From: Polyangia bacterium
GTDB taxonomy: Bacteria; Myxococcota_A; Polyangia; Palsa-1104; JAEUJZ01
DNA: 64,000 nt
Direction of reading: 5' to 3'
Assembly (NCBI GenBank): GCA_046351595.1
Contig: JAXLYE010000002.1
Span: forward strand, 1,304,022 to 1,368,021
Shown here: positions 1,899 through 32,232 of the stretch, one piece after another
Layout: each line of letters starts with the position of its first letter
Position numbering within the stretch: the first letter of the stretch is position 1
Translations under genes and position numbers: made by a program
The notes under the pieces: model-generated
Databases searched by the model: none
Told to the model about the DNA's origin: nothing
Seen by the model: only the letters and a program-made list of their open reading frames with translations

Positions 1899-3980
1899 CT
1901 ACTTCTTCTGCTGCTGCGCGGCCGGCTTCTTCACGCCACCCGGCGCGGGCTTGTTGGGCAGGTTCTTGGGTGCGGTGTCCGTGGTGTCAGGCGACGCCAC
2001 GTCGGCCGGGTTGACCTGCTGCACGCCCTTGGCCACCGGCGGGTCGGTCACGTTGAACTCGACGCGGCGGTTGGCGGCGCGGCCCTGCTGCGTGGTGTTG
2101 GGCTTGATCGGGTGCGTCTGACCGTGGCCGTGCGGCTCCAGGCGCGACTGATCGACGCCTTCCTTGATCAGGAAGCGGACCACGCTCTTTGCGCGGCGCT
2201 CGGACAGATCCTGGTTGTGCTCCAGGCCGCCGCGGTCGTCGGTGTGACCGTCGACCGACATCTTCTTGATCATCGGCGTGTGCTTGAGCACCGTGGCCAC
2301 CGCCTTCAGCACCGGGAAGCTCTGCGGCAGGATCACGTCCTGATCCGTCGCGAAGAACACGGGCTTGAGGATCTTCAGCTCGCCGTCGGTCATCTGGATC
2401 AGGCCGCCGGGGCAGCCGTTCTTCTTCGGATCCGGATCCGGAGCGCCGGGCTTGTCGGGGCACGCGTCGGTCTTGTCGGGCACGTTGTCGTGATCGCGGT
2501 CGGGCAGCGGGCAGCCGATGCGGTCCGGATCCGGGTTCAGGCCGGCCGGGACCTCGGGGCACTTGTCCTCGGGATCGAGCACGCCGTCCTTGTCCTTGTC
2601 GCCGGCCGGGCAGCCGCGGCGCGCCGGGTCGGGCGTCTGGCCCATGTGCACGTCGGGGCACATGTCCTCGTTGTCGAGCACGCCGTCGCCGTCGCGATCG
2701 CCCATCGGGCAGCCGCGGCGCGCCGGGTCGGGCTGGTTGCCCATGTGCACGTCGGGGCACAGGTCGTCCTTGTCGAAGACGCCGTCCTTGTCGCGGTCAC
2801 TGAGCGGGCAGCCGCGGCGCTCGGGATCCGGGTTCTGGCCCATCGGCTCGTCGGGGCACAGGTCCTCGTGATCCATCACGCCGTCGCCGTCGCGGTCGGC
2901 CGGCGGGCAGCCGTTGGTGCGGCGATCGCCGGTCTTGATGCCCTTGACCGTGACGCAGGCATCGTCCTTGTCCATGATGCCGTCGCCGTCGGTGTCCTTG
3001 TCGGGCTCGCGGATCGGCGCGTAGGCCAGGCGCAAGAGCACGCGGCCGTCGGGCGTGCCGGGCTGGCGCAGCGCGCCGATGCCGCCGGCGAGGCCGACCT
3101 GCACGAGCTTGGCGATGTTGTAGTGCGCGCCCAGCAGGATCTCGAGGCTGGTGTGGTCGCGCGCGACACCCTCGGGGCCGATGACCTGCGTCGCGAGCAG
3201 GGCCTCGGGGCCGACCGCGAAGCGCTTCTCGAGGTTGGCGTAGTACAGGCCGAGGCCGAACTGCAGCTCGGAGCCGGTCTTGCTGCCGGCCGGGTTCTCG
3301 AGGTTGCCGATGGTGGCCTCGGGCCGGTAGTAGAACGCGGCGGTGAACGACCAGCGCAGCCAGTCCTTCAAGCCGCCCAGGACGATCTTGGGCATGACGC
3401 GCACGCCCTGCTCGCCGGTGGTGTTCGTGAGGACCGAGCTGTCGCCGGCGATCGCGCGCAGCGGGATCCACACGAAGGCGCCGAGGTGGACCGAGATCGG
3501 GTCGCGGTCGGCGTGCTTCCACAGCCGGACCATGCCGCCGATGCGCGGATCGCCGACGCCGGCGCCCTGCATCGGGGTGATGCCGGCGATGGGCGTATCG
3601 GTGCCGCGCTCCAGGAGCGTAATCGGCAGCGTCAGCGACAGCGTCACGCGGTCGAGGAACGAGCCGGCCAGGTCGACGTGGCCGAGCAGCTGGTGGCCGA
3701 TGACCACCTGGTTCTGCTGGAACGTGCCGTCGGGCTGCGCGGTGCCGAAGACCAGCGGCTGGTGGCCGTAGTTGAGCGTGATGCCGCCCGCGAAGTACCG
3801 CGTCGAGGAGTACCAGGGGTGGTCGACCATGAAGGACCACTCACCGGCGGCCGTGGGCTCATAGCGGTTGAGCTGGAAGCCGGTGTTCTGGGCGTGAGCG
3901 GGGCTCGCCAACGACAGCAGCGCCGCAGCGGCTACACCCAACAGGCAATGTCGTTTCAGAAGTCGCACGAGTTCCTCCAT
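1899..3980 (-). CDS. OmpA-family outer-membrane protein with thrombospondin type-3 (DxDxDGxxDxxD) calcium-binding repeats
   Basis: The signal peptide is MEELVRLLKRHCLLGVAAAALLSLASPAHAQ. There are many DRDGDGV/DKDKDGV repeats. The C-terminal OmpA_C-like domain reads GHTDDRGGLEHNQDLSERRAKSV...NRRVEF. The start is chosen at the internal Met before the signal peptide. Confidence 0.85.
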   Translation of the reverse strand: MEELVRLLKRHCLLGVAAAALLSLASPAHAQNTGFQLNRYEPTAAGEWSFMVDHPWYSSTRYFAGGITLNYGHQPLVFGTAQPDGTFQQNQVVIGHQLLGHVDLAGSFLDRVTLSLTLPITLLERGTDTPIAGITPMQGAGVGDPRIGGMVRLWKHADRDPISVHLGAFVWIPLRAIAGDSSVLTNTTGEQGVRVMPKIVLGGLKDWLRWSFTAAFYYRPEATIGNLENPAGSKTGSELQFGLGLYYANLEKRFAVGPEALLATQVIGPEGVARDHTSLEILLGAHYNIAKLVQVGLAGGIGALRQPGTPDGRVLLRLAYAPIREPDKDTDGDGIMDKDDACVTVKGIKTGDRRTNGCPPADRDGDGVMDHEDLCPDEPMGQNPDPERRGCPLSDRDKDGVFDKDDLCPDVHMGNQPDPARRGCPMGDRDGDGVLDNEDMCPDVHMGQTPDPARRGCPAGDKDKDGVLDPEDKCPEVPAGLNPDPDRIGCPLPDRDHDNVPDKTDACPDKPGAPDPDPKKNGCPGGLIQMTDGELKILKPVFFATDQDVILPQSFPVLKAVATVLKHTPMIKKMSVDGHTDDRGGLEHNQDLSERRAKSVVRFLIKEGVDQSRLEPHGHGQTHPIKPNTTQQGRAANRRVEFNVTDPPVAKGVQQVNPADVASPDTTDTAPKNLPNKPAPGGVKKPAAQQQKK

Positions 3981-4171
3981 CAGCAGGCAAATGTCAGCGC
4001 GAGCCGGCGGCTCGCATGAACTGGGCAGGGGACCGGTCGGCCCGCGCCGCACGCCGCTGCCCAGGGCAGGGCAGGCGGGTGCGGCCGGAGCCGGAGTGAG
4101 CGCCGCGAGCTCGGTGCATGGGGTGGGAGCTCAACGCAAAAAGATCCGAGCTGCGGCGCGGCTGCGGACGG

Positions 4172-6619
4172 CTAGCGCCCCTCGCCGAGGCGACGACGCC
4201 GCCACAGGCCCAGGAGCAGCACGCTGCACAGCGCGAAGAAGGTCAGGCCCTGCGCGCGCGTCGCCGCCGTGGGGCCGACGCTGCAGCTGAAGCCGCCGCC
4301 CGCGAGCTGATCCTCGCCGGTGCCGGGGCCGCCGATGAGGTCACTGCGCGTGACGACGTTGTTCTCCAGGTTCGGATCGTTGGCGCTCGGCGTGCGCACC
4401 GTCGTGTTGATGTCGACGGTCTTCTGGCCGGGGCCGGGCACGACCACGATGCTGATGTCCGGCGCCTTGCCCGGAGGGATGGGCATGTTGTACGTGCACG
4501 TGATCTGCCGATCCTTCTGGCTGCACTGCCAGTCGGGGCCGGGGTTGATCTCCTTGATCGTCCCGCCCGGCGGCACGTCGTACACGACGATGACGCCCGG
4601 AGGCGCGGTGCCGGGGCCGTTGTTGTTCACGGTGATGACGTGCGTGACCGGCTCCTCGGCGCGCGGCGGGTTGGGCTTGGTGCGCACCGTGATCGACAGG
4701 TCGACGTCGGGGATGCGGCAGCGGCTCGTGGCGGTGTCGCAGCTGTTCGACAGGCAGTCACTGTCCTTGGTGCAGCCGCACATCTTGGCCGGGGTGCAGA
4801 TCTGGCCGGTGGGGACGCCGCGGCAGTCCAGGTCGTTCGTGCAGGTGTTGGTGCACTTGAACGCGCTGACGTCGCAGCGCGGCATCATCGACGGGCAGTC
4901 GAGGTTGGTCATGCACTCGCGCACCGAGATCGAGACCGGGCGGTTGGGGAAGAAGACCGGCTTGCCCTTGTCCGGACCGTCGAGCGGCGTGGCGACGCTG
5001 CCGGTGTTCCACGAGGCCGGCGGGATGCCCTGGGTGATGCCGACCATGCCCGAGGCGGTGATGACGCCGCCGATCTGGATGTCCTTGCCGTTGGCCGACG
5101 GATCGACCGTGGTCTGGAACGAGATCGAGGGCGGCGTGTCGTTGGTCGTGACCGAGCCGCCCTTGGTCGCGGTGGCGCCGGTGCCGACGTAGACCTTGAG
5201 GGTGCGGGTCACCGGGTCGTAGACCACCTGGTCATCGCCCATGCCGTCGGTCTTGGGGCCGGCGTTGGGGCCGTTGTTGACCGTCGTCGAGTTGAACACG
5301 TAGGTCAGGCCCGGGGGCAGCTGGATCGTGACGTAGGTGTCGACGCTGGCGTCGGTGCCGGTGTTGGGCGTGGTGACCGTGAACTTGAGCTTGTCGCTCG
5401 GCCGCACGCCGCCGCCGGGGTTGGTGACGTTGGTGTAGTCGAGGCGGCTCTCCGAGAAGATCGGCGTCAGCGTCGCCACCGAGCCGGCGAGCACGCCGAC
5501 GAAGTAGGTGTCGTTGGTGGTGCTGGCCGCGACGTCGATCGACTTGTCGCCGGCCTTGACCAGCGCGGTGATGTCGACGATGTCCATGTCGACGCCGCTC
5601 AGGCTGTCGGGCTGGCCGTTGGTCTGCGGCAGGTCGCCGGTCTGGGTGACGGCGTTGCCGCCGTTGCTGCGCGTGCCGTTGAAGAAGTTGGTCGGCGGGT
5701 TCAGGCCGTTGGTCAGGTTCTGGGTGTTGACCGAGATGCGGTCGCCCGTCGAGCCGGCGTTGCCCTCGTAGGCGACGACGCCGAGCTTGGCGTCGAAGCC
5801 GGTCATCGGGACCAGGAACCCGCTCAGCTTGGCGCTGACCGTGGCACCGCCCGCGACCTGATCGAAGCCCTCGAACACGGTGAGGTTGCGCGGCGGCGCG
5901 GCCTGGGTCTGGTAGAAGACCACGACGCTCCAGGCGGCGTAGAGCAGCTGGTCGGCGCCGTTGACCGGGCTGACCGTGGCGACGTTGCTGACGCGGAAGG
6001 CGCCGGCGCCGTAGGTCTGGACCAGGTCGGTGATGTCCGCGGTCTGCTGGTAGTGCGTGCCCGAGGCGATGACGTCGAGCGACGCCGTCGAGTCGGCGGC
6101 GACCATGCGGCTGAACACGCCGGGGCGGTCGACGCCGATCTGCGCCGTCGGCGAGATCGCGCCCTTGGGCCCCTCGGCCGACCAGTACAGGCGGGCGTAC
6201 GTCACGACCGCGCCGGCCGGCAGCGACAGCACCGCGGTGCTGCGCGCCATCGGCGGCGTGATCGTGGTGCCGGCGTTGGCGGTGCCGGCATCGTCCGCGC
6301 GCCACAGCACGTCGATGTCGTTGTCATCGGTGTTCATGCCGCAGCTGGGATCGACGGTGCCCACGACCGGCTTGGGCGTGGTCGCTCGGCAGTCGTAGCC
6401 GAGCGTATTGCCGAAGATCACCATGTCGCCGCGCTGGCTGACCTGGTAGCGCAGCGACGGCGCAGCGGCAGCCGGGCGGCTCACCAGTCCGACTCCTGCA
6501 AGGAGCGCCGCAGCCAGGAACGCAGGCAGGTACGTAGCAATGCGCTTGGCCAAGTACGTAGGCCGCTCGGCCGCGACACCGAACCGCTTCGCGCGTCGCA
6601 AGGTCTCACTAGGTCTCAT
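4172..6619 (-). CDS. Secreted cell-surface protein with a MYXO-CTERM sorting signal and a Cys-rich EGF-like module
   Basis: The C-terminus GGGFSCSVG...ALCSVLLLGLWRRRRLGEGR matches the MYXO-CTERM pattern (GC motif, hydrophobic helix, Arg cluster). The start MRPSE at 6619 has a strong RBS (GGGAGGAAccaATG) and a signal-like hydrophobic segment. Internal repeat domains and a Cys-rich block CPSMMPRCDVSAFKCTNTCTNDLDC are present. Confidence 0.8.
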   Translation of the reverse strand: MRPSETLRRAKRFGVAAERPTYLAKRIATYLPAFLAAALLAGVGLVSRPAAAAPSLRYQVSQRGDMVIFGNTLGYDCRATTPKPVVGTVDPSCGMNTDDNDIDVLWRADDAGTANAGTTITPPMARSTAVLSLPAGAVVTYARLYWSAEGPKGAISPTAQIGVDRPGVFSRMVAADSTASLDVIASGTHYQQTADITDLVQTYGAGAFRVSNVATVSPVNGADQLLYAAWSVVVFYQTQAAPPRNLTVFEGFDQVAGGATVSAKLSGFLVPMTGFDAKLGVVAYEGNAGSTGDRISVNTQNLTNGLNPPTNFFNGTRSNGGNAVTQTGDLPQTNGQPDSLSGVDMDIVDITALVKAGDKSIDVAASTTNDTYFVGVLAGSVATLTPIFSESRLDYTNVTNPGGGVRPSDKLKFTVTTPNTGTDASVDTYVTIQLPPGLTYVFNSTTVNNGPNAGPKTDGMGDDQVVYDPVTRTLKVYVGTGATATKGGSVTTNDTPPSISFQTTVDPSANGKDIQIGGVITASGMVGITQGIPPASWNTGSVATPLDGPDKGKPVFFPNRPVSISVRECMTNLDCPSMMPRCDVSAFKCTNTCTNDLDCRGVPTGQICTPAKMCGCTKDSDCLSNSCDTATSRCRIPDVDLSITVRTKPNPPRAEEPVTHVITVNNNGPGTAPPGVIVVYDVPPGGTIKEINPGPDWQCSQKDRQITCTYNMPIPPGKAPDISIVVVPGPGQKTVDINTTVRTPSANDPNLENNVVTRSDLIGGPGTGEDQLAGGGFSCSVGPTAATRAQGLTFFALCSVLLLGLWRRRRLGEGR

Positions 6620-6795
6620 TGGTTCCTCCCATAGGATGAAAGCAGTGGGGACTGTGGGGGCCAGTGTGCACCGACTTGGCGGCTTGGGAGAAAAGAAATC
6701 CACGGTTTTCTCGACCTCGCTCCAGAGTCCGTCAAACACTCGGGTTCCCGCTCCCGAGCGCGCGCAGCGACGGAGGAGAGGCTGCCCGGAGGCCG

Positions 6796-6837
6796 GCTGC
6801 GCCCAGACCGCGCCAGACTGCGCCCAGACCGCGCCAG
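6796..6837. repeat. 21-bp tandem direct repeat x2 (ctgcgcccagaccgcgccaga), with further cccagaccgcgcc copies at about 6841 and 6912
   Basis: Direct reading of the sequence. It lies about 180-300 bp upstream of the MYXO-CTERM gene start. Confidence 0.8.
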
Positions 6838-7114
6838 CCGTTCCCAGACGGAGTCAATGCGGCTTCACGGTGATTTCGGACGGTTCCCAACCGGCTCTCC
6901 AAGACCGCTCCCAGACCGCGCCGCGACGGGTCCGCCCGCTCTCTGCGGGCCCGCGCACGGTCCCGCTCAGCGACGGAATGGCGGATTCAGGAATGCTTTG
7001 GTCCGGTCATGTGCCCAATGTCCGCAGTGCCCCGGTGAACGCAGGTTTCCGTCGAGGCGCCGCGGCTCTGCGCTCCCACGGCGGTGCGGAGCGGGTGCGA
7101 TGCAGAAAGAGTCC

Positions 7115-7126
7115 TCTTTAAAGAGA
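7115..7126. promoter_or_regulatory. Perfect 12-bp AT-rich palindrome CTCTTTAAAGAG in a long intergenic region
   Basis: Seen directly. The local AT island stands out against the 72% GC background. Confidence 0.4.
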
Positions 7127-7242
7127 TGCACTTCGCGCGCCCGGTAATGTAGCGGCTCTGTTGCGGGCGATCCTCGACGCGGAGCCGACGCTGGCTCCCG
7201 CGCATTCCGGATTTCATCGGGTAACTACCGTAGGGACGAGCT

Positions 7243-7252
7243 GGGAATTCCC
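7243..7252. promoter_or_regulatory. Perfect 10-bp palindrome GGGAATTCCC
   Basis: Seen directly. It shares the GGGAAT core with the 9795-9830 array and the 41402-41427 copies. Confidence 0.4.
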
Positions 7253-7498
7253 ACTGCGCTTCAGCGACGGCATGCCGCTGGCTCCCAGCAAGGGAGTGAG
7301 CCTATGAAGATGATGAATACGATGAGGACGGCGAAGCGGAAGGGGCGGGCGCGTGGAGGAAGAGGGTCAGGGAATCTCTTAGGGATAAATACAGAGAGAG
7401 CGCAGACTCCGGGAGCGGAGCGCCTCTCTTTACGCCCCCGAGAACGCGGCAGACCTGGCGACAGCGGGGGGCAGGGCCCGTCGCGGCCGCGCTCCTGC

Positions 7499-9436
7499 TC
7501 AGGGACCTGGCCCCTCGCCCGGCGCGCCCTCTTGCCGGCCGTACAGGCGGCGGCCCAGGTCGGCGAGCGCGTCCAGCCCGAGCGGCGGCGTGCCCAGCGT
7601 GACGGTCGTCAGCCGGGTCGGCGCCGCGGCGGCGGCCAGGTCCGCGAGCACCTTGCCCTCGCGCTCGCACAGCGCCGCGCACAGCCGGCAGCCCGGGCTC
7701 GCGGCCGCCGTCGCCTGGTTGACGAAGATGCGCGACAGCGCGATGCCCGCGCGCGCGCACGCGGCCAGCAGGTCCTGCGTCTCGGCGTAGGCCAGGTACG
7801 TCGGGATCGTCACCGCGCACAGGCGGGTCTGCTGCGGCGCGGCCAGCAGCCGGCGCAGCGCCTTCAGGTGCTTGGACAGCGCGATCAGCCGGTCGGTGAG
7901 GCGCGGCAGCCGCATCACGCTCTTCTGCTTCAGCAGCACCGCGAACAGCGCCCGCAGCCAGCCCTCCAGAATCGCCGGCATCTCGAGCAGCCGCAGAAGG
8001 TGCCCGGTCGGCGCGGTGTCGAGCACCACGAGCGCGTCGGGCGCCTCCTCCAGGATCTCGGTGAGCCGCGTCAGCGACACGATCTCGTCGAGGCCGGGCG
8101 GCGTCAGGTCGAGCAGCCGCTCGAGCGCGCGGCGATCGAACGCCAGGTCGGCGTTGCGCAGCTTGTGCCGCAGGACGTCCGAGAGCTCGTCCTTGTAGGC
8201 GTCGCGCCAGTCCCGCCACTGCGCCTCGGGATCTGGCGCCAGCGCGGTGAGCCGCGGCGTGATGGGTCGCGGCTCGGCGCCGACCGCGGTGCCGAGCGCC
8301 GCCGACAGCGAGTGCGCCGGATCCGTGGACAGGAGCACCACCGGGCGCTCCACCGACAGCGCCAGCGCCGTCGCGCAGGCCAGCGTGGTCTTGCCGACGC
8401 CGCCCTTGCCCGCGAACACCAGCAGCCGGCGCTCGGGCGGCGGCGGCGGCGCGGGCGCGACGACCTGCGGCGCCACCTCGGGCCCGCCGGCGCGCGGCGC
8501 GGTCGACGGCTCGGGCAGCGGCTGCGCCAGCTCCCACAGCGACACCAGCGCGGCGCGCCCGCGCACCTCCTGCGCGAGCAGCGGCAGGCCCCAGCGCTCC
8601 TGCACCGGCGCGGTCACCAGCCGCGCATCGAGAGCGCCCTGTTGCGCCGCGCGGACGCGGGCGCACTGCGCGCAGCCGCTCTCGGGGCGCAGGCGGTTGA
8701 CGACGAGCGGACCGAGGTGCAGCCGCCGCGCGTGGAGCCGCTCTAAAAACCCGAGCGTCACGTCGATGCACAGCGGCTCGGCCACGAGCGTCGTCACCAG
8801 GCAGCTGCGCTCCGAGCACAAGAGCGCCTGCGTGCGCCGCGCCGACTCTCCGAGCTCGCTGAGCAGGCGGTCCGTCTCGTCCTCGCGGTAGGCGCCGGCG
8901 AAATGCTGCGCGAGGAAGCGGTGCTTGGCCAGCAGGTCATCCAGCGCCTCGACCCAGTCGCGCAAGAGGGCCGGCACGTCGAGCAGCCGCTCGGTGTGGC
9001 CGCTCGGCGCGGTGTCGACGAGGACCGTCTGCGGCGGCGCCGCCTGCGTCCACTCGGCGATGCGCAGGAACGCCAAAAGCTCGTCGAGCCCGGGCAGCGA
9101 CAGGTCGAAGAAGCGGTCGAGGTCCGCCTCGTCGAGGAAGGTGCCGCGCCGCGCGATCTCGCGCAGCACCGCGCCCTTGTGCGCCATGAACTCGTCGAGG
9201 CACTCCTTCGCATCGAGCTCGACGACCCGCAGGTTGGCCGGCAGCGGCTCGTCACCCAGGCAGTCGCGCAGCGAGTGCGCCGGGTCGACCGAGACCAGCA
9301 GGTACGGCGCCTGCGGGTTGTGCACCGAGAGGTACAGCGCCGTCGCCGCGGCGCAGGTCGTCTTGCCGACGCCGCCCTTGCCCGCGAACAGAAGGAGCTG
9401 CAGGTCGGTGCGGCACAGGAAGCTCGGCAAGTTCAT
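7499..9436 (-). CDS. Tandem-domain Get3/TRC40-like (ArsA-family) ATPase with a CxxC motif in both halves
   Basis: Two P-loop NTPase repeats are present (LLFAGKGGVGKTTCAAATA...VDPAHSL and LLVFAGKGGVGKTTLACATA...TDPAHSL). Each half has VN(Q/R)...GCxxCA (SGCAQCARV and PGCRLCAALC), which is the Get3-type zinc/dimer motif rather than the ArsA metalloid-site Cys pattern. Confidence 0.85.
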   Translation of the reverse strand: MNLPSFLCRTDLQLLLFAGKGGVGKTTCAAATALYLSVHNPQAPYLLVSVDPAHSLRDCLGDEPLPANLRVVELDAKECLDEFMAHKGAVLREIARRGTFLDEADLDRFFDLSLPGLDELLAFLRIAEWTQAAPPQTVLVDTAPSGHTERLLDVPALLRDWVEALDDLLAKHRFLAQHFAGAYREDETDRLLSELGESARRTQALLCSERSCLVTTLVAEPLCIDVTLGFLERLHARRLHLGPLVVNRLRPESGCAQCARVRAAQQGALDARLVTAPVQERWGLPLLAQEVRGRAALVSLWELAQPLPEPSTAPRAGGPEVAPQVVAPAPPPPPERRLLVFAGKGGVGKTTLACATALALSVERPVVLLSTDPAHSLSAALGTAVGAEPRPITPRLTALAPDPEAQWRDWRDAYKDELSDVLRHKLRNADLAFDRRALERLLDLTPPGLDEIVSLTRLTEILEEAPDALVVLDTAPTGHLLRLLEMPAILEGWLRALFAVLLKQKSVMRLPRLTDRLIALSKHLKALRRLLAAPQQTRLCAVTIPTYLAYAETQDLLAACARAGIALSRIFVNQATAAASPGCRLCAALCEREGKVLADLAAAAAPTRLTTVTLGTPPLGLDALADLGRRLYGRQEGAPGEGPGP

Positions 9437-9573
9437 GGCCCGTCACCCGCGCCGCCGCGTCGGCCGCGGTGACGCCGCAGGCCACCGGCCGGGGCGATGG
9501 CGTCCAGGGACTTGTCGCCCGGCTGCTCACTGCGATCGGTCATGAAGGACCCCTGCTGCTCGAGCCGACTGAA

Positions 9574-9588
9574 GAGGGACTGTCCCTC
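9574..9588. promoter_or_regulatory. Perfect 15-bp palindrome GAGGGACtGTCCCTC upstream of the Get3-like gene, followed by an AT-rich tract
   Basis: Seen directly, about 140 bp upstream of the minus-strand start at 9436. The adjacent sequence caacataaagaaaaacgcc is unusually AT-rich. Confidence 0.45.
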
Positions 9589-9794
9589 AACATAAAGAAA
9601 AACGCCGGCACTCGGAATACTTATCTAGGTCTTGCTGCCGAGGGCGAGCTGGCGCGTGCACCCGCCGCAGCGGTATTTCTCGACGCGAGCGGCGCCCGGC
9701 GGAGAGGTGCGTGCCTGCGACCTGGGCCCACAGCCGGTGCCGATGCGCGACTCCTTTCCGTACGCGATTCCTGCGCTCCTGGAGTCACGGTGCT

Positions 9795-9830
9795 CTGATT
9801 GGGAATCTGATTGGGAATCTGATTGGGAAT
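9795..9830. repeat. 12-bp tandem repeat x3 (ctgattgggaat) in a divergent intergenic region
   Basis: Direct reading. The GGGAATC core recurs at 41402-41427 and as the palindrome at 7243-7252. Confidence 0.85.
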
Positions 9831-10329
9831 CGGGTCGCGCGCCGACGGTCGCACCGCCTAGCGGTCCGCCGATGCGCGCCGCTCTCATCGCGCTACAGAC
9901 AGCCGGTTCGCCGACTTCTCGCTCATGTCCTCGGTCTTTCCGGAGTGCGACTGAACATTCGGTTTTTTCGATGAATTCGTACAAAAGATCGGTCTTTTCA
10001 ATATGGGATGATGGCACGCGCGGGCCGCCGATCCGCAGCGTGGGCGCGACGGCGCGCGGACGGTTTCGCGCGCGGCCGCCTCGAGCGCTCCGCTGAGCCG
10101 AGTACGGTCCGCACCGAGGCCGCCGACGCGGGCGCAGATCCGTCTCGTCCCGGGGCGGCGGCGCCGTCGTCGGCAGGAGCCGGTGCGGGGGTGCGGGTGG
10201 ACAGACCGGCGGCGGGCGCGGGGGGCCGGCCGTTACCGGATCCACCTGCCGGTCACGGCCTGGTAGCGCGTGCTCAAGGCCCGATCGTCGGCTCTGTCGG
10301 GCGGCAGGCGGCGCTTGCTGGCGGGCGCG

Positions 10330-10344
10330 TGGCATGCCGGTTGC
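10330..10344 (+). promoter_or_regulatory. Possible sigma54-type -24/-12 element TGGCAT-N5-TTGC upstream of hemG
   Basis: gtGGCATgccggTTGCgc has GG-N10-GC spacing. It lies only about 14 bp before the ATG at 10358, so the leader would be very short, hence the low confidence. Confidence 0.3.
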
Positions 10345-12427: not shown

Positions 12428-13234
12428 TCAGAACAGCATCAGCAGCAGCGGGCGGCCGAGCACGGTCACGCCGATGTGCTGGTGCGCGATCAGACCGAGT
12501 CCGGCCGCGCCGCACAAGAGCAGCCACACGCCTGCGACGGCGGGCAGCACGCGCGCGAGCCGGGTGCGCAGGCCGCCCTGCGTGCGGAACAGCGCCAGGC
12601 GCGGCAGCGCGGTCACGGTAAGCAGCATCGGCGTCGTCATCGCGCACAGAAGCAGCATCACCAGCGCGCCGCGCAGCGCCGAGCCCGAGAGCGCGGCCAG
12701 CCCGAGCGCCCAGCCGACGAGCATGCAAGGCAACAGGCCCATCGCGGCGCCGAGCGCCAGCGGCCGCAGCGGGTGCGTGCTCTCGAGCAGCGGGCGCAAG
12801 AAGCCCTGGGCGCGCTCGACGCTGCGCAGCTGGAAGCTCTTGCCTTCGTCGGCGCTGCGGCGCAGGCGGACGAGCTCGGGCGCGGGCCGTGCCTGCTGCC
12901 CTCCGAGCTGCAGGCGCTGCAGGAGCGGTCGCAGCAGCGGCCACAGCGCCGCCACCCCGAGCGCGAGCGCGAGCAGCGAGCCGGCCGGCCGCAGGATCCG
13001 CGACAGCCCGGCGCCGAGCAGCCCGCACAGCGCGCCGAGCCAGGCGTAGGTCAGCGAGCGGCCGAGCTGGTACAGGAGCACCTGGCCCGCGCCGCGTAGG
13101 GCGCTGCGCCCGCTGCGCACGCCCGCGACGTCCAGCCCGACGAGCAGCGGTCCGCACATGCCGGCGCAGTGCGCGCTCACCCAGACCAGGCCGAGCCCGA
13201 GCAGCTGCGCGTAGGGGCTGGGCAGCGCGCTCAT
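12428..13234 (-). CDS. DsbD_2-type membrane protein, the kind usually annotated sulfite exporter TauE/SafE-like next to ccoG
   Basis: It is polytopic and hydrophobic, carries an HCAGMCGP motif in the first helix, and its ATG overlaps the ccoG stop (ATGA). Confidence 0.6.
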   Translation of the reverse strand: MSALPSPYAQLLGLGLVWVSAHCAGMCGPLLVGLDVAGVRSGRSALRGAGQVLLYQLGRSLTYAWLGALCGLLGAGLSRILRPAGSLLALALGVAALWPLLRPLLQRLQLGGQQARPAPELVRLRRSADEGKSFQLRSVERAQGFLRPLLESTHPLRPLALGAAMGLLPCMLVGWALGLAALSGSALRGALVMLLLCAMTTPMLLTVTALPRLALFRTQGGLRTRLARVLPAVAGVWLLLCGAAGLGLIAHQHIGVTVLGRPLLLMLF

Positions 13235-14667
13235 GGCGAGCGACCCGGTGCGGCAAACAGCAGCGGACCGGCAAAGGGGACCTCGAGCTCGCGCACCGCG
13301 CCGCTGCGCTCGTCCGTGATGCGCAGCGTCGCGTGACGGCCGGGGCGGAAGCCGCTCTTTTGCGCCGACAGCACGACCGTGATGGCGCGGCTCTCCAGCG
13401 GCGCCAGGCTGGCCTCGGGCTGCGGGATGAGGACCTGCAGCCCGGACGCATCGGCCGGCGGCTGCGACGCATTGGCCGGCGCGCTGATGCGCAGGGTCAC
13501 GGGCTCGGCGCGCTTGTTGATGACGTGCACGAGCACGTGGTTGCGCACGGTGTCGCCGTCGATCACGTAGGGCGCGCCGCGACCGCGCACGAGGTTGGCC
13601 TCGAACGGCTGGTAGCGCGCGAACGCGGTGGCGAGCGCCAGGAGGCCGAGCAGGCCGAGACCGGCGTAGGCGATCACGCGCGGGCGGATGAAGCGGCGCG
13701 GCTCGCCGTCGAGCGCGCGCTCGCTGTCATACCGGATGAGGCCCGGCTTGCGCCCGACCTTGAGCATGATCTCGTCGCAGGCGTCGATGCAGCCGGCGCA
13801 GCCGATGCACTCCATCTGCAGGCCGTTGCGGATGTCGATGTCGGTCGGGCACACCGCGACGCAGCGGCGGCAGTCGATGCAGTCGCCGGCGCCCGTCGCG
13901 CCGACCTTGCCGCGCGGCTCGCCGCGGCGCTTGTCGTAGCCGATGACGACGGTGTCGCGGTCCTGCATGGCCGACTGCAGGCGCCCGTACGGGCAGAGGA
14001 TCAGGCAGAACTGCTCGCGGAACCAGAAGAAGTTGAAGTAGAGGATCCCGGTCAGGCCGATGCCCCAAAGGAACGCGGTCCAGTTCGCGAGCGGGTTGTC
14101 CCGCATCATGCGCAACAGCTCGGGGATCGAGACGAAGTACGCCAAAAACAGGTGCGCGAGCACGAACGAGACGAGCAGGAACAGCGCGTGCTTCAGCACG
14201 CGGCGCGCCAGCTTGTTGAGCGTCCAGGGCGCACGCGCCAGCGCCGCGCGGGCCGTGGCCGGGCCCTCGATGAGGCGCTCGATGCGGCGGTAGATTCCCT
14301 CGAGCAGCACGGTCTGCGGGCACGCCCAGCCGCAAAAGATGCGGCCGAACAGCGCGGCCAGCACGATGAGCACGAAGCCGACGCCGCTGACCACGAAGAA
14401 CAGGTAGAAGAAGTCCTGCGCGTTGAAGACCTTGCCGAACAGGTAGAAGCGGCGCTCCAAGATGTTGATGAAGACGGCGGGGTGGCCGTTCACCGTGATC
14501 CAGGGCAGGGCCAGGTAGATCAAGAGCAGCAGCGCAAAGACACGCGGGCGCCAGCGGGTGAAGCGGCCCTGCACGTCGGCGGGGTAGATGTAGCGGCGCC
14601 CGCCGCGCTCGTCCAGGACGTGCAGCTTGTCAAGGCCGGGCGAGGAGCGGGTGCGCGACTGGGTCAT
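13231..14667 (-). CDS. ccoG: cbb3 oxidase accessory protein CcoG/FixG (polyferredoxin with a FixG_C Ig-like domain)
   Basis: FCGWACPQT and CIDCRRCVAVCP...CIGCAGCIDAC 4Fe-4S motifs are present, plus the C-terminal beta-domain. Confidence 0.9.
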   Translation of the reverse strand: MTQSRTRSSPGLDKLHVLDERGGRRYIYPADVQGRFTRWRPRVFALLLLIYLALPWITVNGHPAVFINILERRFYLFGKVFNAQDFFYLFFVVSGVGFVLIVLAALFGRIFCGWACPQTVLLEGIYRRIERLIEGPATARAALARAPWTLNKLARRVLKHALFLLVSFVLAHLFLAYFVSIPELLRMMRDNPLANWTAFLWGIGLTGILYFNFFWFREQFCLILCPYGRLQSAMQDRDTVVIGYDKRRGEPRGKVGATGAGDCIDCRRCVAVCPTDIDIRNGLQMECIGCAGCIDACDEIMLKVGRKPGLIRYDSERALDGEPRRFIRPRVIAYAGLGLLGLLALATAFARYQPFEANLVRGRGAPYVIDGDTVRNHVLVHVINKRAEPVTLRISAPANASQPPADASGLQVLIPQPEASLAPLESRAITVVLSAQKSGFRPGRHATLRITDERSGAVRELEVPFAGPLLFAAPGRSP

Positions 14668-14727
14668 GGGAGTCTCCGCGAGCTCGTTCTGGGCGGGCTC
14701 GTTCTGGGCGTTCTCAAGCGGGCGCGC

Positions 14728-15411
14728 TCAGGGCGCCACCTGCCCGGTCGCGCTCGTGCCCTGCGGCGCCTTTCCGGGGACGTTGGTGTCGCGGAGCGAG
14801 AGGACGTAGGCGACCGCCTCCTTGACCTTGGTCGCGCCGAGCACCGGCTTCCACGACGGCATGCCCTTGTCGAGGACGCCGGCGCTGACGCTGCCGTAGA
14901 TGTCGCGCGCCTTGCTGCCGTGGATCCAGTAGCCGTCGGTCAGGTTGGGGCCGACCACGCCCTGGCCGCGATCGCCGTGGCACGCGACGCAGTTCTGCTT
15001 GAACACCGCGGCGCCGCGCGCGACGGCCTCGGGATCACGGCCCAGGGCGGTGAGCTGCTCTTCGGTGACGCCCTTGCCCTGTGCCTCCAGCGCGGCCTCC
15101 AGGGCGTCCTGCTCTTCCTGGGCGCGGCGCAGCTCGTCGCGGAACGCGGCCATCGGCAGGAGGCCCGCGCCGAGCGTGTGGTAGTAGAACCAGTACACGA
15201 CCGAGAAGGCGATGGCGCCGTACAGCGTGAACAGCCACCAGCGCGGCAGCGGGTTGTCGAGCTCGCGGATGCCGTCGTAGTCGTGTCCCGTGTCGGGGGC
15301 CGTGTCCTGAACCCCGTCGTGGACCCTGTCGTGGACCCCGTCGTGGACCCTGTCGTGGACCCTGTCGTGGACCCTCTCTGGGCTCACGGTTTCCTGTGTC
15401 GTAGCGCTCAT
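14728..15411 (-). CDS. ccoP: cbb3-type cytochrome c oxidase subunit CcoP, monoheme variant with an N-terminal (RVHD)n repeat
   Basis: The family signature DGIRELDNPLPRWW and a transmembrane helix are followed by a single CVACHG heme site. No second CxxCH was found. Confidence 0.85.
   Translation of the reverse strand: MSATTQETVSPERVHDRVHDRVHDGVHDRVHDGVQDTAPDTGHDYDGIRELDNPLPRWWLFTLYGAIAFSVVYWFYYHTLGAGLLPMAAFRDELRRAQEEQDALEAALEAQGKGVTEEQLTALGRDPEAVARGAAVFKQNCVACHGDRGQGVVGPNLTDGYWIHGSKARDIYGSVSAGVLDKGMPSWKPVLGATKVKEAVAYVLSLRDTNVPGKAPQGTSATGQVAP
15304..15375. repeat. In-frame 12-bp tandem repeat x5-6 (gtcgtggaccct) encoding (D/G)RVHD repeats at the CcoP N-terminus
   Basis: Direct reading. Confidence 0.85.
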
Positions 15412-15632
15412 GGCGACTCCCTCCCTTCGCTCGGCGCGGCCGCCCTGCCCGCAGCCTGAGCAACCGCCGTGCCGTCGTCGCTGAGCGGCAGCCCGGCCAG
15501 CTCGGCGTAGGCCGCGCGCTGCGAGCCGCGCAGCGTGTACAGGACCGCAGCGACGAACGTGATCAGGAACGACAGCATCGCCACGATCGGGAGGATCAGG
15601 AGGCCGCGTCCGGAAAAGAACTCGTGGTACAT
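15408..15632 (-). CDS. ccoQ: Small single-TM cbb3 subunit CcoQ/FixQ-like
   Basis: It is 74 aa with one hydrophobic helix (LLILPIVAMLSFLITFVAAVLY), lies between ccoNO and ccoP, and its stop overlaps the ccoP start. Confidence 0.7.
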   Translation of the reverse strand: MYHEFFSGRGLLILPIVAMLSFLITFVAAVLYTLRGSQRAAYAELAGLPLSDDGTAVAQAAGRAAAPSEGRESP

Positions 15633-15660
15633 GGGAACGTCTCCAGTTGCCTGCTGGCCG

Positions 15661-15728
15661 GTTACTCTCTGGCCACTTCCTGTTACTGATTTGTTACTTC
15701 GTCGTTACCGCGGCGCCCGGCCGTTACT
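15661..15728. promoter_or_regulatory. Five direct GTTAC(T/C) repeats in the ccoNO-ccoQ intercistronic region (spacings 21, 11, 12, 18 bp)
   Basis: The pair TGTTActgattTGTTAc is 11 bp centre-to-centre, which resembles ArcA/OmpR-family direct-repeat boxes. Confidence 0.35.
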
Positions 15729-18063
15729 TCCTGGCCTCGGGCGCCGCTGCGGTCGTCGCCGCCGTCGCTGTCACCGCAGAGCCCGGGTTCTTGCCGAGGC
15801 GCTGCAGGTACGCGATGAGCGCGACCATCTCGCTGTCCCATGCAACCGGCGCGCCCTGGCTCGCGAGCTCACTGGCGATGCCCTTGGCCTGGGACTCCAG
15901 GTCGCTGTTCGCGCTCGACAGCTCCGCCGCCGAGTAGGGCACGCCGAGGGTGCGCATCGCGCTCATCTTCACCGTCGTGTCGCCGGTGTCGATCGTGCGC
16001 TGGAGCAGGAACGCGTACGGCGGCATGTTCGAGCCCACCGACGTGACCCGCGGATCGATCAGGTGCTGGTAGTGCCACAGGTGCGAGTACTTGCCGCCGA
16101 CGCGGTGCAGGTCCGGGCCGGTGCGCTTGGAGCCCCACTGGAACGGGTGGTCGTAGATGAACTCTCCCGCGGTGCTCGGCTCGCCGTAGCGCAGCTTCTC
16201 GCCCTGCAGCGGGCGCACCATCTGCGAGTGGCAGACGTAGCAGCCCTCGCGCACGTAGATGTCGCGGCCGTGCAGCTCGAGCGGGCGGTAGGGCGTCTGC
16301 ACCGGGCCGGTGCGCGGCACCGCGCGGTCGACGACCAGCGTCGGCAGGATCTCGGCGACACCGCCGACCAGCACCGCGATGAGCGCCAGCACCGAGAACA
16401 AGAGCGAGCGGCCCTCGAGCACGCGGTGCACGTCGATGCGGCCTCTGTCATCGCGCGGCACGCCGAACACGAACCACGCGGCGACCACCAGGATGACCAT
16501 GCCGGTGATCAGCAGCGTCGCGACCGGGATCTGATCGACCAGGAAGAAGGTGCCGAGGATCACGAAGGCCGCCACCGAGATCAGGATCGGCGTCGAGAAC
16601 ACCAGGCGCGTCCACGGGATCGTCGGGCGCGCCGGCTCGGGCTCGGGGTCGAGCACCTCGACCGTGGTGTCCACCGGCGTGCCGGCGGCGATGGTCTTGC
16701 CGAGGTTCCAGGCCATGAGCAGGAAGCCGACCAGGTACATCGTGCCGCCCACCGCGCGCGTCATGTACAGCGGCCGGATCGCCAGCAGCGTCTCGACGAA
16801 GCTCGGGTAAAGGAGCGCTCCCTCGGAGGTCGTGGCGCGCCACATCAGGCCCTGGGTGATGCCGCTGATCCACATCGAGATCGTGTAGAGCAGGATGCCG
16901 AACGTGCCGAGCCAGAAGTGGAAGTCGGCGGCGGCCTTGCTGTGCAGCGGGCGGTTCCACAGCCGCGGCACCAGGAAGTAGAACATGCCGGCGGCCATGA
17001 AGCCGTTCCAGCCGAGCGCCCCGGTGTGGACGTGGCCGATGATCCAGTCGGTGTAGTGGGCCAGGCCCGAGACGCTCTTGATCGAGAGCAGCGGGCCCTC
17101 GAACGTCGCCATGCCGTAGAACGTCACGCCGGCGATCAGGAACTTGAGGACCGGATCCGTGCGCAGCTTGCCCCAGGCGCCGCGCAGCGTCAGAAGTCCG
17201 TTGATCATGCCGCCCCACGACGGCGCCCACAGCATCAGCGAGAACAGCATGCCCATCGACTGCGCCCAGTCCGGGAGCGCGGTGTAGAGCAGGTGGTGCG
17301 GCCCGGCCCAGATGTACATGAAGATCAGGGCCCAGAAGTGGATGATGCTGAGCCGGTACGAGTACACCGGGCGGCCCGCGGCCTTGGGCAGGAAGTAGTA
17401 CATGATGCCGAGGATCGGGGTGGTCAGGAAGAAGGCGACCGCGTTGTGCCCGTACCACCACTGCACCAGCGCGTCCTGCACGCCGGCGAAGACCGAGTAG
17501 CTCTTGATGCCCTTGCCGATCGGCAGCGCCAGCGAGTTCACGACGTGCAGCACGGCCACGGTCAGGATGGTGGCGATGTAGAACCACAGCGCGACGAACA
17601 GGTGCTCTTCACGGCGGCGCTTCAGCGTTAAGAAAAAGTTGATGCCGAAGGTGATCCACACCAGCGCGATGGCGATGTCGATCGGCCACTCGAGCTCCGC
17701 GTACTCCTTCGACTGGGTGATGCCGAGCGGCAGGGTGATCGCGGCGGCGACGATGATGAGCTGCCAGCCCCAGAAGTGGACCGCGGACAAGAGGTCGCTG
17801 GCCATGCGCGCCTTGCACAGCCGCTGCGTCGAGTAGTAGATGCCGGCGAAGAGCATGTTGCCGACGAACGCGAAGATGACCGCGTTGGTGTGCAGCGGCC
17901 GCAGGCGCCCGAAGCTGAGCCAGGGCGCGAGGTTCAGCTGGTGGAAGGCGAGCTGGCAGGCGATGAACACGCCGACGAGCATGCCCACCGCGCCCCAGAA
18001 GACGGAGGCGAGCAGGAATCGTCTCACAGAGCGATCGTCATAGGTGATGGATACGGGCTTCAT
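15724..18063 (-). CDS. ccoNO: Fused cbb3-type cytochrome c oxidase subunits I and II (CcoN-CcoO)
   Basis: The N-terminal 12-TM heme-copper oxidase segment ([15 protein letters not shown]...) continues in one frame into a CcoO-like monoheme domain ([11 protein letters not shown]...[11 protein letters not shown]). Confidence 0.9.
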
Positions 18064-18221
18064 GGTCCTTCCTCTTGCATCGGGGGCTCCTCCTCCAGCG
18101 GGAGGAGCGAAAGTCGGTCGGAGTGCTCGTGCGTGCGCCGCAGGAACAGCGCGCCGAACAAGAGCGCGAACAGCAGCACGAGGATCAAGCTGACGAACAG
18201 CGTCAGGTAGATGGCGTTCAT
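18060..18221 (-). CDS. ccoS: cbb3 oxidase maturation protein CcoS/FixS (53 aa, single TM)
   Basis: [35 protein letters not shown] is the size and architecture of CcoS. Its stop overlaps the ccoNO start, and its ATG overlaps the ccoI stop (ATGA). Confidence 0.7.
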
Positions 18222-20737
18222 GCGGTCACCTCGGCGGGGGCTGGCAGCAAGCGCGGTGCCTGCCGGAGCGGCGCCTCGCGGGGCGCGGCCTGCGCCTCTG
18301 CGCTGCGGAACGAGCGCAGCGTCGCCAGCACGACCAGTAGGGAGCTCACCGGCATGAGCAGCGCGCAGCGCAGCGGCGTCATCATGCCGGCGAGCGCCAG
18401 CGCGACCACGGCGACGTTGTAGGCGCCGCTCAGGAGCAGGTTGCGGACGATGACGCGGCGCAAGAAGCGCGCGGTCGCGAGCGACTCGGCGATGGGGCCG
18501 AGGCCGTGGCCCAGGAAGTAGAAGTCGGCGCGCGCGGGCAGGGCCGGGCGCTCGGTCGCCGGCGTGCCCGCGCAGAGCGCGGCATGGAAGGCGAGGGCGT
18601 CGTTGATGCCGTCGCCGATCATCATCGTGTCGGGCGAATCGGGCGCGCCGATGCGCTGCACCGCGGCCGCCTTGTCCTCGGGGCGCAGGCCGCCGAGCGC
18701 CTGCTCCGCGGGGACGCCGAGCCGAGTCGCCAGCGCGCTCACCCGCTCGGGCTGATCGCCCGAGAGCAGCCACACCTTGTAGCCGGCCGCGGCGAGCGCA
18801 TCGACCTGGTCGCGCGCGTCCGGGCGCAGCTCCTCGCGGAAGCGGAAGCAGGCGCGGAGCGTGCCCGCGATGCTGAACAAAAGCGCGCCGCCGCTCCCGG
18901 GAGGAGTCGGGGACGCGGTCGTGGCGTCTGCGCCCACGAACTCGGCGGTGCCGAGGCGCACGGCCTGGCCCGCGAGCTCGGCCACGAGGCCGCGGCCCGG
19001 CTCCTCGAGCACCACGGTCGCGGTGTCGAGCACCGGCGGCGCCGCCATCATGCGCACGAGCGCGTCGAGCAGGGCGCGGCTGCGCGGGTGGTTGGAGCGC
19101 GCCACGAGCTGGTACAGGGCGCCGCGCTCGGTCACGCCAAGCGCACGGAGCGCCTCGGGGTTCTCGAGCGCCGGCTCCAGCGCGGTCAGCGTGCCGGTCT
19201 TGTCGAACAGCACCTTGCGCACGCGCAGCGCGCGGTCGAAAAACGTCACGTCGCGGACGAACAGGCCGAGGCGGCGCAGCCGGCCCTGCGCCAGCTCGTA
19301 GGCCAGCGGCGTCGCCACGCCGAGCGCGCACGGGCACGTCACCATGAGCAGCGCCGCGGTCACCTCGAGCGCGCGGGCGCCGTCACGCGGCAGCCACAGC
19401 CCGAGCCCGAGCGCGGCCAGCGCCAGCACGCCGAGCACGTAGTAGCGGCTCAGGTGGTGCCAGAAGTCGCGCCGCGGCTCGCTCGTGCTCGGGTCGCGGC
19501 GCGCGCGCAAAAGCTCGCACAGCGCCGAGGCGCGGAAGTCCTCGGTGGCGCGCAGCCGCACGGCGCGGCCGCCGGCGCTCGCCGCCAGGTTGTGGGCACC
19601 GGCGGGGGCGCGATCGCCGCGCGTGAACAGCCGCGGCTCGGCCTCGCCGCTGATCCACTCCAGCGACAGGAGCGCGCGCTCCTCCAGGCACTCGCACGCG
19701 GTCGGCAGGAGCTCGCCGGGCGCGCACAGGAGCTCTTGGCCCGCGCGCAGCTCGCTCGCCGGCAGCAGGCGCATGCGGCCGTCGCCGTCCACCGCGCGGA
19801 CCACGAAACCGGCGATGCCCTCGTCGCTGAGCAGGACGCGGCGGTTGTGGCTGGCGATGCGCCGCTGGATCAGGCGCCCCATCAGCATGAGCGCGATGAA
19901 GGTCGTCAGCGTGTCAAAGTACGCGGACTGGCCGCCGCGGCTCACAAAGGCCCAGGCGCTGCCCGCGTAGGCCAGCAGCATGCCGAGCGCGATCGGCACG
20001 TCCATGTGCAGGATGCGCCGCCGCAGCGCACCGATCGCCGAGCGGACGAAGACGCTGCCGCCGAGCAGCAGCGCGGCGGTGGCGAGCGCGAAGCTGCCGA
20101 TCGAGAAGATGCGGTACAGGCCCGAGTCCGCGCCGCCGCTGCCGCCACCGTCTTCCAGGCCGAAGTAGATGGCGAACGAAAAGATCATGCTGTTCATGGC
20201 CAGCGCCGCGCACAGGCCGAAGCGCAGCAAGAGGTCATCGCCCTCGTCATCGGGGCGCTTGCGCGGCGGCCCGGCGCGGTAGCCGAACGGCTGCAGCTCG
20301 TCGAGGAAGCGGCCGAGGATGCGGCTGCCCTCGCCGGACTGCCAGAAGACCTCGGCGCGGCCGAGCGCGGGGTTGATGGTGATCGCGCGCGCGCCCGGGA
20401 TGCGGCGGAACAGCCGCTCGATCAGCCACACGCACGCCGCGCACTGCAGGCCCTGCAGATCCAGGGTGAGGCGCGCGGTGCCGCTCTGCGCGCTCTGCTC
20501 CGCTGCCTCGATCAGCGGCGCCAGCCAGGTGCGGCTGTCTTCACCGCGCGCGGAGCCCGGGACCGCCAGCCGCTGCCCGTCGAGCAGATCGTAGAAGCGG
20601 GAGAGGCCGGCCTGCTCGATCAGCTCGTGCGCGGCGCGGCAGCCGGTGCAGCAGTAGGGCGCAGTCGCCGCACCTTTTGCGATCGGGCTGTGACAGTGCG
20701 GACACGTGCTGCGCATCAAAAAACTTCCTTCCAACAA
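18218..20737 (-). CDS. ccoI: Copper-translocating P1B-type ATPase CcoI/FixI
   Basis: An N-terminal Cys-rich metal-binding region is followed by the TM CPC motif (TCPCALGV), DKTGTLT and GDGINDA. Confidence 0.9.
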
Positions 20738-26474: not shown

Positions 26475-26588
26475 GCCCGTTCGCACGGGCGCCGAGCTCG
26501 CGCATTTCTCCGACGGTAGAGCCGCTGCCTGAGAGGTTTCTTATGCAGCGCTCATGCAGCCCCGGGCGGCGGCTGCCAGGCTGCAGGC

Positions 26589-32148: not shown

Positions 32149-32232
32149 GCAGCGCGGTCGCGGCACCGCCGGCGTCAAAGCGATCCGCGCCCGCCCCGCG
32201 CCGCAGCAAAGAGGAGCGCCCAGCAACGGCAG

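Follow-up and report, generated by a model that had tools for sequence, protein, structure and literature searches.

A tandem ATPase gene with a CxxC motif in each half

We analysed a 64,000-nucleotide (nt) stretch of contig JAXLYE010000002.1 from a Polyangia bacterium (positions 1,304,022 to 1,368,021; hereafter the window), focusing on an intact gene at 7499-9436 on its minus strand that is set between two long flanks carrying traces of gas-vesicle (gvp) genes. The gene encodes a tandem, pseudo-dimeric ATPase of the Get3/ArsA fold, as judged from its open reading frame (ORF), two Pfam ArsA_ATPase domains in a protein of 645 amino acids (aa), the TIGR00345 model, an AlphaFold2 (AF2) model and Foldseek. 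The ORF runs uninterrupted over 645 codons, and its G+C content at third codon positions (GC3), 0.96, is typical for genes of this 70%-GC window. Exact look-up of the 645-aa protein returned no identical record.

The motifs of the fold occur once in each half. The P-loop GKGGVGKT lies at aa 19-26 (9359-9382, minus strand, as for all features of the gene) and at aa 343-350 (8387-8410), switch I (DPAHS) at aa 51-55 and 372-376, and switch II (DTAP(S/T)GH) at aa 141-147 and 473-479; both halves also contain PGLDE, which conforms to the Get3-type motif PG(I/L)DE. A Pro/Ala-rich linker (aa 305-334; 8435-8524), without regular secondary structure in the AF2 model, joins the halves. In addition, both halves share the pattern N-x(7-9)-CxxC. 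The N-terminal motif VNRLRPESGCAQC (VNRLRPESG-CAQC; aa 246-258; 8663-8701) contains a CxxC at aa 255-258 (8663-8674), a putative Zn ligand pair, and the C-terminal motif VNQATAAASPGCRLC (VNQATAAASPG-CRLC; aa 572-586; 7679-7723) contains another at aa 583-586 (7679-7690), a putative second pair. In a phmmer alignment, the N-half CxxC matches column for column that of the M. thermautotrophicus Get3/TRC40 protein (PDB 3zq6). The four cysteines are kept in 121 and 120 (N-half) and in 114 and 121 (C-half) of 121 aligned homologues, and because of this retention the double CxxC is beyond chance. The starting point of the initial annotation, a tandem ATPase with a CxxC in both halves, is thus borne out.

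That annotation had also argued against a role as ArsA, the ATPase that drives arsenite/antimonite pumps. Such a role would be in keeping with the tandem architecture, with automated names such as 'arsenite-transporting ATPase' and with the best full-length fold match, the closed ArsA structure 9nbw (Foldseek template-modelling (TM) score 0.77), yet we regard it as extremely improbable. The protein passed TIGR00345, a broad GET3/ArsA/TRC40 model (283.8 bits; cut-off 135), and fell short of TIGR04291, the NCBIfam ArsA equivalog (147 bits; cut-off 650). The metalloid-cysteine segments of L. ferriphilum ArsA (sgaCttE, hsPCteE, asClgp) face ldlTPPGLDE or a gap in the query, and across the 121 homologues no cysteine is conserved at the columns of E. 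coli ArsA C113, C172 and C422; ArsA, for its part, has no CxxC. A Pfam scan of 30 ORFs of the window found no arsB, acr3, arsD or arsR, as the annotation had noted for arsB, arsD and arsR in the vicinity of the gene. The profile comparison with ArsA and Get3 that it had proposed favours Get3 on a per-domain basis: a profile of the 121 family members scored 190-268 bits with single-domain Get3 proteins and 211-217 bits in total (~105 per domain) with two-domain ArsA proteins, and its top match was the tandem Get3-type ARSA1 of Chlamydomonas (311 bits). The AF2 model (predicted local distance difference test score, pLDDT, 90.1; predicted TM score, pTM, 0.90) is a closed pseudo-dimer whose halves match Get3 3zq6 with TM scores up to 0.83. 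These sequence and model comparisons indicate that the tandem ATPase is Get3-like and not a metalloid-pump ArsA, and proteins of this family should not carry the name arsenite-transporting ATPase.

Traces of gas-vesicle genes in the flanks

The ATPase gene is bordered by gene-free stretches of 759 bp (6740-7498) and 897 bp (9437-10333). The initial annotation described them as long, repeat-rich non-coding regions; their length stands, whereas 'repeat-rich' was an overstatement, as Tandem Repeats Finder (TRF) reported few repeats, namely a 21-bp unit in two copies (6797-6837), a 12-bp unit, TCTGATTGGGAA, in 3.2 copies (9794-9831), both perfect, and a few marginal ones. The flanks gave no Rfam match, and sigma-70 promoter and terminator scans of them were empty. 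A tblastn search with Gvp proteins of four relatives likewise found no match in the 64-kb window, and relics in the flanks became detectable only with ~93%-identical contigs as the reference. These two contigs, L091 and L092, came from one sample in a metagenome scan and share ~93% nt identity with the window over the ATPase gene. L092 carries two GvpF/L genes directly upstream of the ATPase gene. L091 carries genes for GvpJ-like, GvpJ2/M-like, GvpK and GvpG proteins directly downstream of it, followed by a DUF11 gene as in the window. L091 starts (positions 1-363) with the C-terminal portion of an AMP-binding ORF that resembles acyl-CoA synthetases and is in frame with the C-half of the ATPase from about residue 394.

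Upstream of the ATPase gene, blastn, alignment and tblastn delineate a gvpF/L relic (9441-9628, minus strand) that consists of a conserved 5' region and the first ~21 codons. Its leader (9541-9628) is 90% identical to L092, and 9481-9543 still codes for the first 21 GvpF/L residues (MTDRSEQPGDKSLDAIAPAGG against MTDRSEQQGGEYLYAIAQAEG; 14 of 21 aa in tblastn), with the GvpF/L hallmark YLYAI changed to SLDAI. About 690 bp of the gvpF/L body are gone, and homology to L092 returns 5-15 nt before the ATPase ATG; what the deletion leaves is a 36-codon ORF that overlaps the ATPase start codon (ATGA). The retained upstream region contains a perfect 15-bp palindrome, GAGGGAC-A-GTCCCTC (9574-9588, minus strand), at a single site in the window, set in the unusually AT-rich leader of the gvpF/L remnant. 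Among the 95 loci compared, its core, AGGGACNGTCCCT, recurs only in L092, at the corresponding place (4510-4522); the palindrome may serve the gvp operon as an operator or form a hairpin. Together with the 36-codon ORF, the conserved leader could still support expression of the ATPase.

Downstream, homology to L091 extends 23 nt beyond the ATPase stop codon and ends at 7476. The alignment reveals here the relic of the 5' end of a gvpJ/S-like gene that formerly overlapped this stop codon (7476-7515, minus strand), its start codon changed from ATG to AGG (7513-7515). Some 1.4 kb that contained gvpJ, gvpJ2 and gvpK in L091 are gone, and so is part of gvpG. A gvpG relic persists as two fragments on the plus strand, opposite to the ATPase gene (7254-7422): a 5' fragment (7254-7299) that has lost the start codon and, across an internal deletion of ~250 bp, a 3' fragment (7315-7422) with 51% aa identity over 37 aa to GvpG of L091. 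The remainder of this flank (6740-7253) is intergenic DNA in common with gvp-bearing L091, where it lies between gvpG and the DUF11 gene, and belongs to a 79%-identical stretch.

On the strength of these alignments, the long non-coding flanks are the deletion scars of a gvp cluster. The deletions are placed in the lineage of the window because all wider relatives have the gvp cluster. The ATPase stands apart due to gvp deletion and is not a stand-alone system. The initial annotation had drawn on the isolation of the gene when considering its role; with relics of gvpF/L, gvpJ and gvpG in the flanks, that isolation is secondary.

The orphan gene itself is well preserved. Of 145 positions with at least 95% conservation across the family, it retains 140; family members miss 2.6 such positions on average and up to 14. 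Two of its five departures (E226V and C380A) are common to the closest gvp-linked relatives, P0001 and P0002, and residue 226 departs in P0009 too. The ratio of non-synonymous to synonymous substitution rates (dN/dS) is 0.32 against L092 (dS 0.14) and 0.40 against L091 (dS 0.11), and outgroup polarisation assigns eight aa changes to the window and six to the relative. Pseudogenisation was considered and ruled out by the conserved positions, the partly shared departures and the symmetry of lineage-specific change, and the gene shows no sign of accelerated decay. It may be either a recently orphaned relic or a gene kept for a client-independent chaperone role.

A general, possibly redox-switched holdase, activated by Zn release and retained after gvp loss to protect proteins under oxidative or other stress, would be one such role. 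An intact gene that has gathered no surplus of derived changes since it was orphaned would fit it, as would the conserved upstream region that could still drive expression, the gvp-unlinked copy in M. xanthus (PMC2963123) and the behaviour of CxxC/Zn Get3 proteins, which become holdases on oxidation (Farkas 2019, PMC6593721; Barlow 2023). However, dN/dS values of 0.3-0.4 at a dS of ~0.12 also fit a deletion so recent that decay has had little time to set in, and the Usp and CBS-domain genes of the window are not adjacent to the ATPase gene. We consider this explanation unlikely.

Gas-vesicle context of the family and its possible role

The search for homologues yielded more than 7,900 ArsA/Get3-type matches, and the best 120 were taken as the family. 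All of these are tandems of 637-717 aa, with 43-66% identity to the window protein and coverage of at least 89% (at least 94% in all but two). Genomic context was examined for ten homologues spanning 44-66% identity, and all ten lie inside gvp clusters of one micro-synteny, in which one to three GvpF/L genes, sometimes followed by GvpG, precede the tandem ATPase, and a small Gas_vesicle-family GvpJ/S-like protein, GvpK and a second Gas_vesicle-family protein follow it. Nearby genes encode GvpA, GvpN and, in many cases, a CDC48-like AAA+ protein, the structural genes gvpA and gvpN being at most ~8 kb from the ATPase gene in every relative sampled. In most of them (e.g. L001, L086, L088, L090, L093 and L094), the GvpJ/S-like gene either overlaps the stop codon of the ATPase or starts within ~45 nt of it. 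The homologue in L001, flanked by gvp genes, has 66% aa identity to the window ATPase.

A scan of GTDB with the family alignment, for which the generic P-loop served as pattern, gave mixed ArsA/Get3 matches, which were filtered afterwards by Gvp matches. Among the 15 loci with the greatest similarity to the query, 13 carry Gvp genes. These 15 loci include 11 gvp-linked tandems, eight of which have a CxxC in both halves, while a ninth (L006) is cut by the contig end; the eight are from Anaerolineales, Labilithrix, Terriglobia, Rokubacteria, Candidatus Angelobacter, Vicinamibacterales, Dehalococcoidales and Terriglobales. In one widespread type of gvp cluster, the tandem double-CxxC Get3-like ATPase belongs to the standard gene set, and it is fixed in the sampled clusters from Myxococcota-like bacteria, Acidobacteriota, Rokubacteria, Chloroflexota and metagenome contigs. 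The window gene is orthologous to gvp-embedded genes (those of L001, L091 and L092), and its own place is among gvp relics only, not among functional gvp genes.

Several other features of these clusters were observed. A two-ring CDC48-like AAA+ ATPase recurs in L001, L002, L085, L089 and L093, and the protein of L093 (892 aa) also matches the GvpL_GvpF family. A PAS histidine kinase and a response regulator are found within the gvp clusters of L002, L093, L094 and L095. Two Chlorobiaceae loci (L013 and L014) have gvp clusters with a single-domain (~320 aa) ArsA/Get3-like protein without CxxC, and the gvp association therefore covers single-domain as well as tandem forms.

We consider it probable that the family is a gvp-cluster ATPase with an ATP-driven client-chaperone role, and that the flanking gvp genes were deleted at this locus while the ATPase was left intact. 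At least three deletions removed the flanking genes, taking gvpF/L upstream and, downstream, the gvpJ/S-like and gvpJ/M-like genes, gvpK and most of gvpG. The two halves of the protein would close into a Get3-like pseudo-dimer with two competent ATP sites, and a single Zn would be held at the pseudo-twofold pivot by the four cysteines of the two CxxC motifs, in the manner of Get3 homodimers. As ATP drives the helical subdomains open and closed, the protein could then hold and release Gvp proteins that are hydrophobic and prone to aggregation while vesicles nucleate or grow. Foremost among the candidate clients would be the GvpJ/S-like protein, whose gene overlaps the ATPase stop codon or adjoins it; this product has a hydrophobic core segment, with a maximal Kyte-Doolittle value of ~2.0-2.15 over 19 residues. 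Ancestrally, as gene context suggests, the protein would most likely have acted on hydrophobic Gvp proteins, as their ATP-driven chaperone or assembly factor, and the ATPase of the window would now be without local clients. The family thereby offers a concrete candidate for keeping the very hydrophobic GvpA-family proteins soluble and inserting them into the growing shell, and the locus a clean example of gvp-cluster decay that leaves one gene.

Some observations weigh against this account. To our knowledge, the ATPase is absent from the well-studied clusters that yield vesicles heterologously (Anabaena, B. megaterium, Serratia), and for this reason it would be at most accessory or lineage-specific. 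The gas-vesicle role of the family is drawn from gene context, and the ATPase has stayed intact although every neighbouring gvp gene was lost, which could mean that its function is wider than gas vesicles. The helical subdomain is not Met-rich, with one or two Met per half. One of the two reference contigs, L091, may be a chimeric low-coverage assembly, or the ATPase may be truly disrupted in this relative. Finally, another gvp cluster may be present elsewhere in the genome, beyond the 64 kb inspected.

This last point leads to a further explanation, in which the ATPase serves gas-vesicle assembly in trans, with a second or relocated gvp cluster outside the window. The intact gene and conserved upstream region would suit it, and the inspection covered 64 kb. 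Nevertheless, the relics indicate deletion in situ and not relocation, and gvpA and gvpN, which lie within ~8 kb of the ATPase gene in all relatives, are both missing from the window. We judge the in-trans explanation to be quite unlikely.

The initial annotation had instead proposed a bacterial Get3-type factor for tail-anchored proteins, which would capture their C-terminal transmembrane segments and deliver them to the inner membrane. The Get3 fold and the CxxC are compatible with this, and the alpha7-alpha9 region is closer in length to archaeal Get3 than to ArsA, the alignments making it ~8 aa shorter than the former and ~7 aa longer than the latter. The best PDB match, Chlamydomonas ARSA1, is moreover a tandem protein that binds tail anchors, and predicted tail-anchored proteins tend to be more numerous in species that have tandem homologues (Farkas 2019, PMC6593721). 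Genomic context points elsewhere: no insertase or tail-anchored client gene is linked, and because the ten sampled homologues and 13 of the 15 GTDB loci carry gvp genes, it indicates gas-vesicle biogenesis and not tail-anchor targeting. Helical-subdomain residues are strongly conserved and are unlike between the halves (L168, L169, K171, R173 and D186 in the N-half; W493, F498, L502, K503, P511 and S521 in the C-half). Conservation of identity at these positions suggests specific partners rather than a generic groove for transmembrane segments, and the paucity of Met is a further point against the proposal. In E. coli, tail-anchored proteins are handled by other chaperones (Farkas 2019, PMC6593721). 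Tail-anchor targeting is therefore a very unlikely function for this ATPase.

If the gvp-cluster chaperone reading is extended beyond this locus, tandem double-CxxC Get3-like ATPases might constitute a dedicated ATP-driven chaperone or delivery factor for gas-vesicle shell and nucleation proteins across many non-cyanobacterial phyla. We put this forward tentatively, as a possibility that we would not yet expect to hold. If true, it would describe a 'GET-like' pathway directed to a protein shell on the gas-water interface and not to a lipid membrane, and the intact copy surviving the total loss of neighbouring gvp genes would imply a second, client-independent chaperone role. Such a factor would also be of practical interest, as gas vesicles are under engineering as acoustic reporters.

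Neighbouring genes and comparison with known systems

Two genes downstream of the ATPase gene, both on the minus strand, also recur near gvp clusters. One (4172-6739) encodes a secreted DUF11/DUF3344 (CLIPPER-type) protein with 40% identity to CLIPPER723 of L086, and a counterpart is found at the end of L091. The other (1899-4052) encodes an OmpA/TSP3 protein and shows 54-58% identity to its OmpA counterparts in L085 and L086. In the closest relatives (L085, L086 and L089), the OmpA/TSP3 gene lies beside gvp clusters, in varying position and orientation, and is accompanied by the DUF11/DUF3344 gene in L085 and L086; the pair persists in the window despite the loss of the gvp genes.

Further along, a minus-strand cluster for maturation and structural components of a cbb3-type cytochrome oxidase (12428-20737) encodes a DsbD_2-like membrane protein, FixG/CcoG, FixP/CcoP, a fused CcoN-CcoO protein (779 aa; COX1 and FixO) and a CcoI-like P-type ATPase. 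Two stretches, 25048-26588 (1.5 kb) and 29021-32232 (3.2 kb), contain no ORF that passes the GC3-based gene filter, and the GC peak of the window (0.81) falls in the kilobase at 28-29 kb. The Pfam Pkinase match of a Ser/Thr kinase ORF from 32233 begins at profile position 123, and its true start may lie upstream, inside 29021-32232. The Mrp/ApbC protein of the window is 65-68% identical to proteins of metagenome-assembled genomes from Polyangia or Myxococcales, and the Ser/Thr kinase with AAA_16, the sigma-54 activator, the cbb3 oxidase and TreS/Mak fit a Myxococcota-compatible gene content.

Two lines of earlier work bear on this ATPase family. Farkas 2019 (Traffic, PMC6593721) described unique tandem CxxC homologues of Get3 in Myxococcales and stated their function as unknown. 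The window ATPase resembles them in having two Get3-like domains per chain, a CxxC in each and a Myxococcota-like host, with no architectural difference. Gas vesicles are unmentioned in that study, whereas here the family is gvp-embedded and the copy in the window is an orphan. Castillo and Saier 2010 (PMC2963123) reported two-domain ArsA homologues in gvp operons, in their Clusters 4 and 6. Like the window ATPase, these are ~640-aa tandems without ArsA Cys113/172/422, and they stand beside gvpF/L, J and K. Cluster 6 contains Aba1 of Acidobacteria Ellin345, which is gvp-linked, and Mxa1 of M. xanthus (655 aa), which is not and thus resembles the window ATPase as a myxobacterial copy without gvp linkage. 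The CxxC and the likeness to Get3 were not noted there, and the unlinked copy was left unexplained; in the present case, separation from the gvp genes can be traced to deletions. In our literature search, this was the only paper found to link ArsA or Get3 with gas vesicles; no paper was found naming both 'gas vesicle' and 'Get3', and later work on Get3 phylogeny is silent on gas vesicles.

Among the structurally characterized relatives, archaeal Get3/TRC40 (3zq6; M. jannaschii 3ug6) aligns end to end with each half of the window ATPase at 26-28% identity, with TM scores up to 0.83, and shares the CxxC position, the switch motifs and PGxDE. These archaeal proteins differ in being single-domain homodimers or tetramers that bind tail-anchored proteins, and in an alpha7-alpha9 region ~8 residues longer than that of the window N-half. 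ARSA1 of Chlamydomonas reinhardtii (5zme) is, like the window protein, a tandem pseudo-dimer and gives the best PDB sequence match (1e-47). However, it is a eukaryotic protein that targets tail-anchored proteins to the chloroplast and has no CxxC in the aligned region, as seen in our alignment and in Farkas 2019 (PMC6593721). With ArsA (E. coli 1f48; L. ferriphilum 9nbw), the window ATPase has the tandem fold in common, and its closed model superposes on 9nbw at a TM score of 0.77; unlike ArsA, it has neither the metalloid Cys triad nor an ars operon, and it has CxxC pairs and the Get3-type PGLDE. The tandem CxxC observation and the gvp link had each been published separately. Our analysis joins the literature on Get3 evolution with that on the gvp 'ArsA' proteins and adds an explanation for an unlinked myxobacterial copy.

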